From a phage: 499 nucleotides of DNA. The stretch's first letter is position 1. The number at the start of each line of letters is the position of its first letter. The position numbers were made by a program, and so were the translations under genes. Under the pieces are notes generated by a model that was not told the DNA's origin, did not search any database, and saw only the letters and a program-made list of their open reading frames with translations. The stretch lies in sequence record EF517065.1; one strand, given 5' to 3'. Below, one piece after another: positions 1 to 499 of this stretch.

Positions 1-23
1 TTCAGGCAATCTTAGAGAAAGAT

Positions 24-239
24 ATGCTGCATCTATGTAAGCAGGTCGGCTCAGGTGCGATTGTCCCCAATGGTAAACAGAAGGAAATGATTGTCCAGTT
101 TCTGACACACGGTATGGAAAGATTGATGACATTCGTAGTACGTACATCATTTCGTGAGGCCATTAAGGACATGCACGAAGAGTATGCAAATAAGGATTCT
201 TTCAAACAATCTCTTGCAACAGTACGGGAGGTGTTCTGA
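24..239 (+). CDS. Hypothetical small protein, 71 aa from ATG 24 (MLHLCKQVGSG...ATVREVF). May be the 3' part of a longer gene, since the frame is open back to position 3.
   Basis: ORF with ATG at 24-26 and TGA stop at 237-239. The same frame has no stop between positions 3 and 23 (codons cag gca atc tta gag aaa gat), so the true start may lie upstream of the window. Only a weak purine-rich stretch (AGAGAAAG, 14-21) precedes ATG 24. The stop overlaps the next gene's start (TGATG), which supports a real coding strand. Product not recognised. Confidence 0.55.
   Translation: MLHLCKQVGSGAIVPNGKQKEMIVQFLTHGMERLMTFVVRTSFREAIKDMHEEYANKDSFKQSLATVREVF
226..231 (+). promoter_or_regulatory. Shine-Dalgarno-like ribosome-binding site (GGGAGG) for the ORF starting at 239.
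   Basis: GGGAGG lies 7 nt upstream of ATG 239, embedded in the last codons of ORF1. This is the classic arrangement for translational coupling. Confidence 0.6.
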
Positions 240-448
240 TGTCTGACTATCTGAAAGTGCTGCAAACAATCAAAAGTTGCCCTAAGACTTTCCAGTCCAA
301 CTATGTACGGAACAATGCGAGCCTCGTAGCGGAGGCCGTTTCCCGTGGTCACATCTCGTGCCTGACTACTAGTGGACGTAATGGTGGCGCTTGGGAAATC
401 ACTGCTTCCGGTACTCGCTTTCTGAAACGAATGGGAGGATGTGTCTAA
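239..448 (+). CDS. Hypothetical small basic protein, 69 aa (MSDYLKVLQTIK...FLKRMGGCV); possibly nucleic-acid binding, function unknown.
   Basis: ATG at 239-241 shares its A with the upstream TGA stop (237-239). GGGAGG at 226-231 sits 7 nt upstream of the ATG. TAA stop at 446-448 overlaps the next ATG. By hand count the protein has 9 K/R against 3 D/E. No family recognised from memory. Confidence 0.7.
   Translation: MSDYLKVLQTIKSCPKTFQSNYVRNNASLVAEAVSRGHISCLTTSGRNGGAWEITASGTRFLKRMGGCV
433..438 (+). promoter_or_regulatory. Shine-Dalgarno-like ribosome-binding site (GGGAGG) for the ORF starting at 448.
   Basis: GGGAGG lies 9 nt upstream of ATG 448, embedded in the last codons of ORF2 (encoding ...MGG). 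It is the same hexamer as at 226-231. Confidence 0.6.
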
Positions 449-499
449 TGTCTTGTGACCTTGTGACTATTCCACGCGATGTGTGGAACGATATACAGG
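448..499 (+). CDS. Hypothetical protein, N-terminal fragment only (MSCDLVTIPRDVWNDIQ...), truncated by the window edge.
   Basis: ATG at 448-450 overlaps the TAA stop of the upstream ORF (TAATG). GGGAGG at 433-438 sits 9 nt upstream. The frame is open to the end of the window (17 codons). Too short to identify. Confidence 0.5.
   Translation, partial: MSCDLVTIPRDVWNDIQ
452..467 (+). repeat. Perfect tandem direct repeat, CTTGTGAC x2 (16 bp), immediately after the ORF3 start codon.
   Basis: Read directly from the sequence: cttgtgac at 452-459 and again at 460-467. It lies inside ORF3 coding sequence (codons S-C-D-L-V-T). Functional significance unknown. Confidence 0.4.

Follow-up and report, generated by a model that had tools for sequence, protein, structure and literature searches.

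The 499-nt window (sequence record EF517065.1), by which we mean the whole stretch of DNA analysed here, is almost certainly a slightly mutated copy of phage T7 DNA, in which gene 5.5 ends, gene 5.7 is complete and gene 5.9 begins, with the compact polycistronic junctions of T7. In a megablast search of 50,697 phage records, T7 (V01146, 16912-17410) matched all 499 of the 499 bases at 98.0% identity. The T7 annotation of this region (V01146, 16851-17517) places gene 5.5 at 16851-17150, gene 5.7 at 17150-17359 and gene 5.9 at 17359-17517, with gene 5 (DNA polymerase) and gene 5.3 upstream and gene 6 (exonuclease) downstream. Besides the 489 bases shared with T7, the gene order, the reading frames and the Shine-Dalgarno (SD) hexamers are also the same, and the junction regions are base-for-base identical.

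Genes 5.5, 5.7 and 5.9 are class II (middle) genes of T7 located between genes 5 and 6, and the region has been annotated since the T7 genome sequence of 1983. A megablast search against 5,426 complete E. coli genomes returned no match to the window, which argues for DNA of a lytic phage rather than of a prophage. A prophage or plasmid origin was thus rejected, as no E. coli genome matched and all matches were to lytic Autographiviridae. Nothing that we found argued against the identification of the three genes. The phages compared with each other numbered seven and came from three genera: Teseptimavirus (T7, AV103 and 04922B), Teetrevirus (T3, ECA2 and HMGUsm2) and Berlinvirus (CarlSpitteler).

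The 3' part of gene 5.5, namely codons 22-99 and the TGA stop codon, occupies positions 1..239 of the plus strand, as assigned from DNA identity with T7, the T7 annotation and the Pfam family PF11247. The 78 translated residues matched the profile of this family (Phage_T7_55) at 170.5 bits (cutoff 25; E = 9.5e-51) over positions 22-99 of its 99 positions, and PHROG 1452 (Gp5.5-like host H-NS inhibition) also matched the gp5.5 part (E = 7.5e-21). Gene 5.5 lies directly upstream of gene 5.7, as it does in the T7 annotation and in the six relatives. The list of plus-strand open reading frames contained 24..239 (71 aa) and 239..448 (69 aa), and the initial annotation had let the first gene begin at 24. 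As this frame is already open from base 3, a start at 24 is not required. Because the T7 gene begins at 16851, 61 nt ahead of the first base of the window, and encodes a product of 99 aa, the ATG at 24..26 (plus strand) is instead the internal Met29 of gp5.5, in agreement with the T7 gp5.5 sequence and coordinates. The size of about 70 aa ascribed to the encoded proteins was therefore right for gp5.7 (69 aa) but wrong for gp5.5 (99 aa) and gp5.9 (52 aa in T7).

The T7 record credits gene 5.5 with allowing growth on lambda lysogens and with H-NS binding. According to the literature, the central oligomerisation domain of H-NS is the target of gp5.5, which counteracts H-NS, and a tRNA-related role has also been reported (PMC8501957). 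A PDB search with gp5.5 returned no solved relative. Compared with T7, gp5.5 of the window carries the substitutions G61R, D84N and P92L, and both G61 and P92 are invariant in all seven phages. Judged from its sequence, the gp5.5 of the window would be a putative H-NS binder with two replacements, G61R and P92L, at invariant residues.

Gene 5.7 is complete in the window (239..448, plus strand) and encodes 69 aa, an assignment based on PDB entry 5LGM, PHROG 1334 and the T7 annotation. The NMR structure of gp5.7 (5LGM) matched the product from residues 1-69 to residues 1-69 with E = 1.1e-41, and PHROG 1334 matched with E = 5e-39. The 5LGM entry bears the name 'Fusion protein 5.5/5.7' but contains gp5.7, and gp5.7 homologues are widely mislabelled as 'HNS binding protein' in phage records. 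The protein is nearly invariant across T7-like relatives, and that of the window shares 67 of its 69 residues with wild-type T7, the two changes being A10T and A34V. Both alanines are invariant in all seven phages compared. The residues F18 and L42, reported to be necessary for transcription inhibition (PMC5569994), are unchanged in the window. In T7, gp5.7 has a winged-helix-like fold and represses the host RNA polymerase (Esigma70) at the T7 A1-A3 promoters (PMC5569994). Furthermore, it inhibits EsigmaS through sigma region 4 and permits T7 development in stationary-phase cells (10.1101/262279). It also influences the competition for cells that grow slowly (PMC7617280), and RADAR2 appears to be triggered by it (PMC11482910). 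The gp5.7 of the window can thus be regarded as a putative inhibitor of Esigma70 and EsigmaS, a function transferred from the literature on the T7 protein.

From 448 onwards, a third plus-strand frame stays open to the end of the window; it corresponds to the opening 17 codons of gene 5.9 (448..499, plus strand), the product of which has 52 aa in T7. Seventeen codons are too short for HMM tools, and the assignment was made from DNA identity and the T7 annotation: the DNA is collinear with gene 5.9 of T7, and 16 of the 17 residues are those of T7 gp5.9, with the single change R3C. Full-length T7 gp5.9 matched PF25708 at 27.8 bits (cutoff 24.5), PHROG 9014 with E = 5.6e-40, and the PDB entries 8B1R, 9GMB and 9GMD. 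Gene 5.9 is annotated in the T7 record as a RecBCD inhibitor. Acidic and folded as a parallel coiled coil, its product mimics DNA and obstructs the DNA-binding site of RecBCD; the retron Ec48 senses this protein (PMC9836394). Moreover, gp5.9 blocks the DNA-capture site of MukBEF (PMC7617805).

The trio is thus already known: all three genes are named, their products have assigned targets, and two of the products have solved structures. The initial annotation had proposed a candidate uncharacterised module, a view that cannot stand beside three named genes and the solved structures of gp5.7 (5LGM) and gp5.9 (8B1R and 9GMB/9GMD). Its placement of the stretch in an accessory region of a phage was correct, as these are T7 class II (middle) genes, and its guess at anti-defence or host-takeover roles agrees with what the literature reports of gp5.5, gp5.7 and gp5.9.

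Direct reading of the sequence confirmed the two 1-nt stop/start overlaps that had been described, each with a GGGAGG hexamer 7 or 9 nt before the ATG. At the first junction, TGATG (237..241, plus strand) joins the stop codon of gene 5.5 (TGA, 237-239) to the start codon of gene 5.7 (ATG, 239-241) through the shared A239, and the SD sequence for gene 5.7 (GGGAGG, 226..231, plus strand) lies within the gp5.5 codons R-E-V, 7 nt before the ATG. At the second, TAATG (446..450, plus strand) joins the stop codon of gene 5.7 (TAA, 446-448) to the start codon of gene 5.9 (ATG, 448-450) through A448, and GGGAGG (433..438, plus strand) within the gp5.7 codons M-G-G, 9 nt before the ATG, forms the SD sequence for gene 5.9. 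The T7 annotation agrees: base 17150 both ends gene 5.5 and begins gene 5.7. We searched mononucleotide shuffles of the window for junctions having a 1-nt overlap, GGAGG 5-12 nt upstream, an upstream frame of at least 50 codons and a downstream frame of at least 17 codons. One such junction occurred in 32 of 200,000 shuffles and two in none of the 200,000, from which we conclude that the pattern did not arise by chance.

The same anatomy was found in the relatives. T3, ECA2, HMGUsm2, AV103, 04922B and CarlSpitteler resemble the window in the 1-nt overlap of genes 5.5 and 5.7, in the SD sequence inside the upstream gene and in the location of the cassette between the DNA polymerase and exonuclease genes, whereas they differ from it in their DNA (71-93% identity) and, in some cases, in an absent or divergent gene 5.9. 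The 1-nt overlap at the 5.5/5.7 border is kept in seven of the seven phages, with TGA or TAA as the stop codon. The SD sequence before gene 5.7 reads GGGAGG in T7, AV103, 04922B, HMGUsm2, ECA2 and T3 and GTGAGG in CarlSpitteler. At the 3' end of gene 5.7, four of the seven phages (T7, AV103, 04922B and T3) have the 1-nt overlap with gene 5.9, and in the other three (ECA2, HMGUsm2 and CarlSpitteler) gene 5.7 overlaps the gene that follows by the 4 nt ATGA; GGGAGG precedes the gene after 5.7 in all seven. Within 6.5 kb of T7 DNA, the borders 6.7/7 and 7.7/8 show the same 1-nt overlap, and the gene pairs 5.9/6 and 6/6.3 overlap by more. As overlaps recur at other gene borders, we see in them a genome-wide, compact polycistronic style of T7-like phages rather than something peculiar to genes 5.5, 5.7 and 5.9.

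The proposed co-transcription of the genes appears reasonable. T7 makes polycistronic transcripts (10.1101/106799). The nearest annotated T7 promoters flanking the trio are phi4.7 and phi6.5, and the stretch between them is free of promoters. Within the window, we found no T7-promoter-like site, the best match to the consensus having mismatches at 10 of 23 positions, and no site resembling an intrinsic terminator. A sigma-70 promoter scan of the window yielded a single promoter-like site, on the minus strand, which is what shuffled sequences led us to expect. With neither an internal promoter nor a terminator, the plus-strand genes of this stretch could well be co-transcribed on a class II polycistronic mRNA. 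We also considered a non-coding RNA, which was rejected because an Rfam scan (E <= 1) gave only a chance match to CRISPR-DR36 at 15.4 bits (gathering score 38).

The overlapping frames could also be read in other ways. A gene on the minus strand, which would turn the plus-strand frames into artefacts, had been named beforehand as the finding that would speak against the module, and an open minus-strand frame does exist: a 116-aa GTG-initiated ORF (2..352) lies inside an open frame of 154 codons both in the window and in T7. This frame is interrupted in AV103 (84 + 64 codons) and in 04922B (77 codons), while the plus-strand products match Pfam, PHROG and PDB entries and all annotated T7 genes of the 6.5-kb neighbourhood are on the plus strand. 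Over the same 499 bases, 23 of the 30 differences between AV103 and T7 (about 92-94% identity) fall at third positions of the plus-strand frames, with a synonymous to nonsynonymous ratio of 22:8; for 04922B (about 87-88% identity) the corresponding values are 47 of 58 and 47:9. The broken minus frame in the relatives and the third-position bias of the plus frames together refute a minus-strand gene, and we regard the chance that one lies here as vanishingly small. Another reading sees the 1-nt overlap at the 5.5/5.7 junction as a device for a programmed -1 frameshift at the end of gene 5.5, by which the two genes would in part be decoded as a single gp5.5-5.7 fusion of 169 aa. The original T7 record indeed annotates a joined CDS as 'possible gene 5.5-5.7', a preprint states that the fusion is a -1 frameshift product (10.1101/299180), the PDB and some phage records use the name 'fusion protein 5.5/5.7', and PHROG 17900 (170 positions), which was built on fusion annotations, matches both ORFs end to end. 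However, the 5.5/5.7 fusion protein was reported not to be expressed (PMC5569994), and on direct reading the codons before and at the stop of gene 5.5 (CGG GAG GTG TTC TGA) contain no slippery heptamer of the type X_XXY_YYZ. In CarlSpitteler, gene 5.5 ends with GTG AAG TAA, and the difference in the terminal codons means that no common shift site is conserved. Moreover, identical 1-nt overlaps are present at unrelated T7 junctions. A functional 5.5-5.7 fusion is therefore unlikely, and we give little credence to a frameshift as the purpose of the overlap.

The initial annotation had gone a step further in describing the genes as a stoichiometrically coupled module, which implies that the three small proteins form a complex and that coupling sets their equal dosage. 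The genes are certainly chained tightly, with the same architecture at both junctions, and the adjacency of genes 5.5 and 5.7 is conserved in all seven phages examined. Against such a complex, the known targets are unrelated, namely H-NS for gp5.5, RNA polymerase and sigma S for gp5.7, and RecBCD and MukBEF for gp5.9. Nor is the make-up of the cassette constant among relatives: CarlSpitteler lacks gene 5.9, and in ECA2 and HMGUsm2 a divergent protein of 60 aa takes the place of gp5.9, although genes 5.5 and 5.7 remain. Furthermore, none of the solved structures shows gp5.7 and gp5.9 together, each protein having been determined by itself or bound to host targets, and the papers cited here on these proteins do not report a gp5.5-gp5.7-gp5.9 complex. 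Because the targets are separate, a stoichiometric module is not supported, and we hold it to be very improbable, even more so than the frameshift fusion. We thus retain the reading of a T7 segment in which individually acting proteins are encoded in the compact style of the phage.

How the chained genes are translated is a separate question. In the mechanism that we propose, genes 5.5, 5.7 and 5.9 would be transcribed rightward by T7 RNA polymerase within long polycistronic mRNAs, in which each downstream gene has its own strong GGGAGG SD sequence buried in the last codons of the preceding gene. A ribosome finishing gene 5.5 or 5.7 would already be positioned on the next start codon, and de novo initiation would also be possible. 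The T7 products act separately on the host, gp5.5 on H-NS, gp5.7 on RNA polymerase and gp5.9 on RecBCD and MukBEF. As the terminating ribosome sits on the next ATG with an SD sequence 7-9 nt upstream, coupling by termination-reinitiation is plausible. The arrangement resembles the coupled overlapping genes of bacterial operons and phages in the single mRNA, the stop/start overlap and the SD sequence inside the upstream gene, and termination-reinitiation at ATGA, TGATG and TAATG junctions has been reviewed (PMC12548453, PMC4538824). Against obligatory coupling, genes 5.7 and 5.9 each have a near-consensus SD sequence at good spacing and could initiate independently. A literature search returned no experiments on coupling at the 5.5/5.7 or 5.7/5.9 junctions, and the evidence for coupling in T7 that we found concerned only genes 10-12, as an indirect and tentative inference (10.1101/106799). 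From the anatomy of the junctions, we see about an even chance that the translation of genes 5.7 and 5.9 is coupled to that of the gene upstream.

RNA folding offered a speculative extension of this mechanism. Minimum free energy (MFE) folds contained a possible weak hairpin that might mask the SD sequence of gene 5.7 (210..231, plus strand), pairing 210-216 with 225-231 across an 8-nt loop. MFE and centroid folds also contained a possible weak pairing of CUUCC (405-409) with GGAGG (434-438) that might mask the SD sequence of gene 5.9 (405..438, plus strand). Speculatively, such stems would make initiation of the downstream gene dependent on translation of the upstream one. The hairpin at gene 5.7 is kept in six relatives, and a synonymous change from CCT to CCC in ECA2 and HMGUsm2 turns a U-G pair into a C-G pair; in CarlSpitteler the hairpin is broken. 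Its fold energy is no better than that of shuffles (z = +0.68), and its arms encode the conserved peptide SPATVREVF. The fold at the SD sequence of gene 5.9 has z = -1.36, with 19 of 200 shuffles folding as well, and in relatives this SD sequence has a different CU-rich pairing partner. The conservation test is confounded for both stems because the arms of both encode conserved peptides. We consequently rejected SD-masking structure as proof of coupling, since shuffled sequences gave folds that were as good and the encoded peptides confound the conservation of the stems.

The differences of this copy from T7 have an unusual spectrum. All ten of the ten are G:C -> A:T transitions, six C -> T and four G -> A on the plus strand, and none of them falls in the junction motifs. 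Among natural relatives, changes of the G:C -> A:T type account for only 19 of 88 differences, and ten out of ten would be expected by chance with a probability of about 2e-7. Six of the ten alter amino acids, namely the three in gp5.5, the two in gp5.7 and the one in gp5.9 given above. If G:C -> A:T changes struck these frames at random, 67% would be nonsynonymous, which is near the observed share; in natural relatives the figure is about 20%, far from it. The exclusive G:C -> A:T spectrum and the lack of any sign of purifying selection suggest a mutagenised T7 derivative, and a mutagenised or mutation-accumulation lineage of T7 seems the simplest reading of the spectrum. GC -> AT changes dominate after mutagenesis of T7 with nitrosoguanidine or hydroxylamine, with each treatment yielding about four to eight mutations in a genome, as summarised in PMC6042481. 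Deamination damage or an artificial edit could also possibly lie behind the spectrum. Among the matches listed from the 50,697 phage records, none exceeded 98.0% identity to the window. Two 34-mers bearing its variants were absent from viral contigs, one of them also from metagenome contigs, and a search for the exact gp5.7 protein of the window did not find it on record. Because of the six amino-acid changes, some of them at invariant residues, the copy in the window may encode impaired proteins.

A bolder interpretation combines a T7 lineage heavily mutated from G:C to A:T and tolerating changes at invariant residues with, as a separate element, SD hairpins that enforce translation in the order 5.5 -> 5.7 -> 5.9; we consider it possible but rather doubtful. 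If the lineage did carry such a heavy load, the 2% of sites changed here would correspond to about 800 mutations per genome, provided that they were uniformly distributed, as after prolonged nitrosoguanidine or hydroxylamine mutagenesis. Even if true, neither the mutated lineage nor the hairpins would change the identities of the genes.

With its genes named and their products assigned, the locus has little value as a discovery, and some as a check on method. A phage accessory or host-takeover cassette was inferred correctly from the anatomy of the junctions alone, without tools. A chain of stop/start overlaps, with Shine-Dalgarno sites embedded in the genes, can thus be used as a signature of such regions.

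Ten positions separate the window from phage T7 (101, 120, 189, 197, 214, 250, 266, 339, 382 and 454), and all ten differences are G:C to A:T transitions. Six of them are nonsynonymous, as compared with a neutral expectation of 67% and a share of about 20% between natural relatives, and some fall on residues that are invariant across three genera. The substitution pattern looks like the product of chemical mutagenesis, of the nitrosoguanidine or hydroxylamine type, or of cytosine deamination, and not like natural divergence. Among the matches listed, no public phage record exceeded 98.0% identity to the window, and those variant-bearing sequences that served as queries returned no match in the sequence collections queried.

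One of the substitutions, C214T, lies in a predicted stem. In the predicted folds, each Shine-Dalgarno hexamer could pair with a CU-rich stretch within the upstream gene (window 210-231 and 405-438). The C214T substitution converts a C-G pair into U-G and weakens the first stem (210-231) relative to T7; the predicted fold energy is -10.8 kcal/mol in the window as opposed to -15.0 kcal/mol in T7. When compared with shuffled sequences, the predicted folds at both Shine-Dalgarno sites did not reach significance.

On the minus strand, a 154-codon frame antisense to genes 5.5 and 5.7 (window 2-463) is open in both T7 and the window and contains a 116-aa ORF starting with GTG (2..352). We rejected this frame as a conserved gene because stop codons interrupt it in AV103 and 04922B, two natural Teseptimavirus relatives of T7.

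Set against the product of window 239-445, the solved gp5.7 structure (PDB 5LGM) carries L42A, a change belonging to a stabilised gp5.7 construct (PMC5569994). Despite the name "Fusion protein 5.5/5.7", the entry contains only gp5.7 residues 1-69. Although gp5.7 is an inhibitor of RNA polymerase and sigma S, its homologues in phage ECA2 (539-748 of the retrieved stretch) and in the Klebsiella phages KP32_195, vB_Kp1 and Henu1 are labelled "HNS binding protein", and the true gp5.5 homologue of ECA2 is labelled merely "DUF2675 domain-containing protein". These labels probably arose by drift in annotation, starting from "fusion protein 5.5/5.7", the name used in databases. The record of Serratia phage HMGUsm2 gives no annotation for an intact 69-aa gene 5.7 (539-748 of its stretch), which translates cleanly and, like its T7 counterpart, has a 1-nt overlap with gene 5.5.

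In ECA2 and HMGUsm2, the 5.9 slot (745-927 in both stretches) is filled by a divergent 60-aa protein. CarlSpitteler, a Berlinvirus, carries a putative homing endonuclease upstream of the cassette and lacks gene 5.9, its gene 5.7 (524-733 of the retrieved stretch) sharing an ATGA overlap with the exonuclease gene. The upstream gene 5.3 is missing from AV103 and 04922B. The 5.5-5.7-5.9 cassette is modular among these phages.
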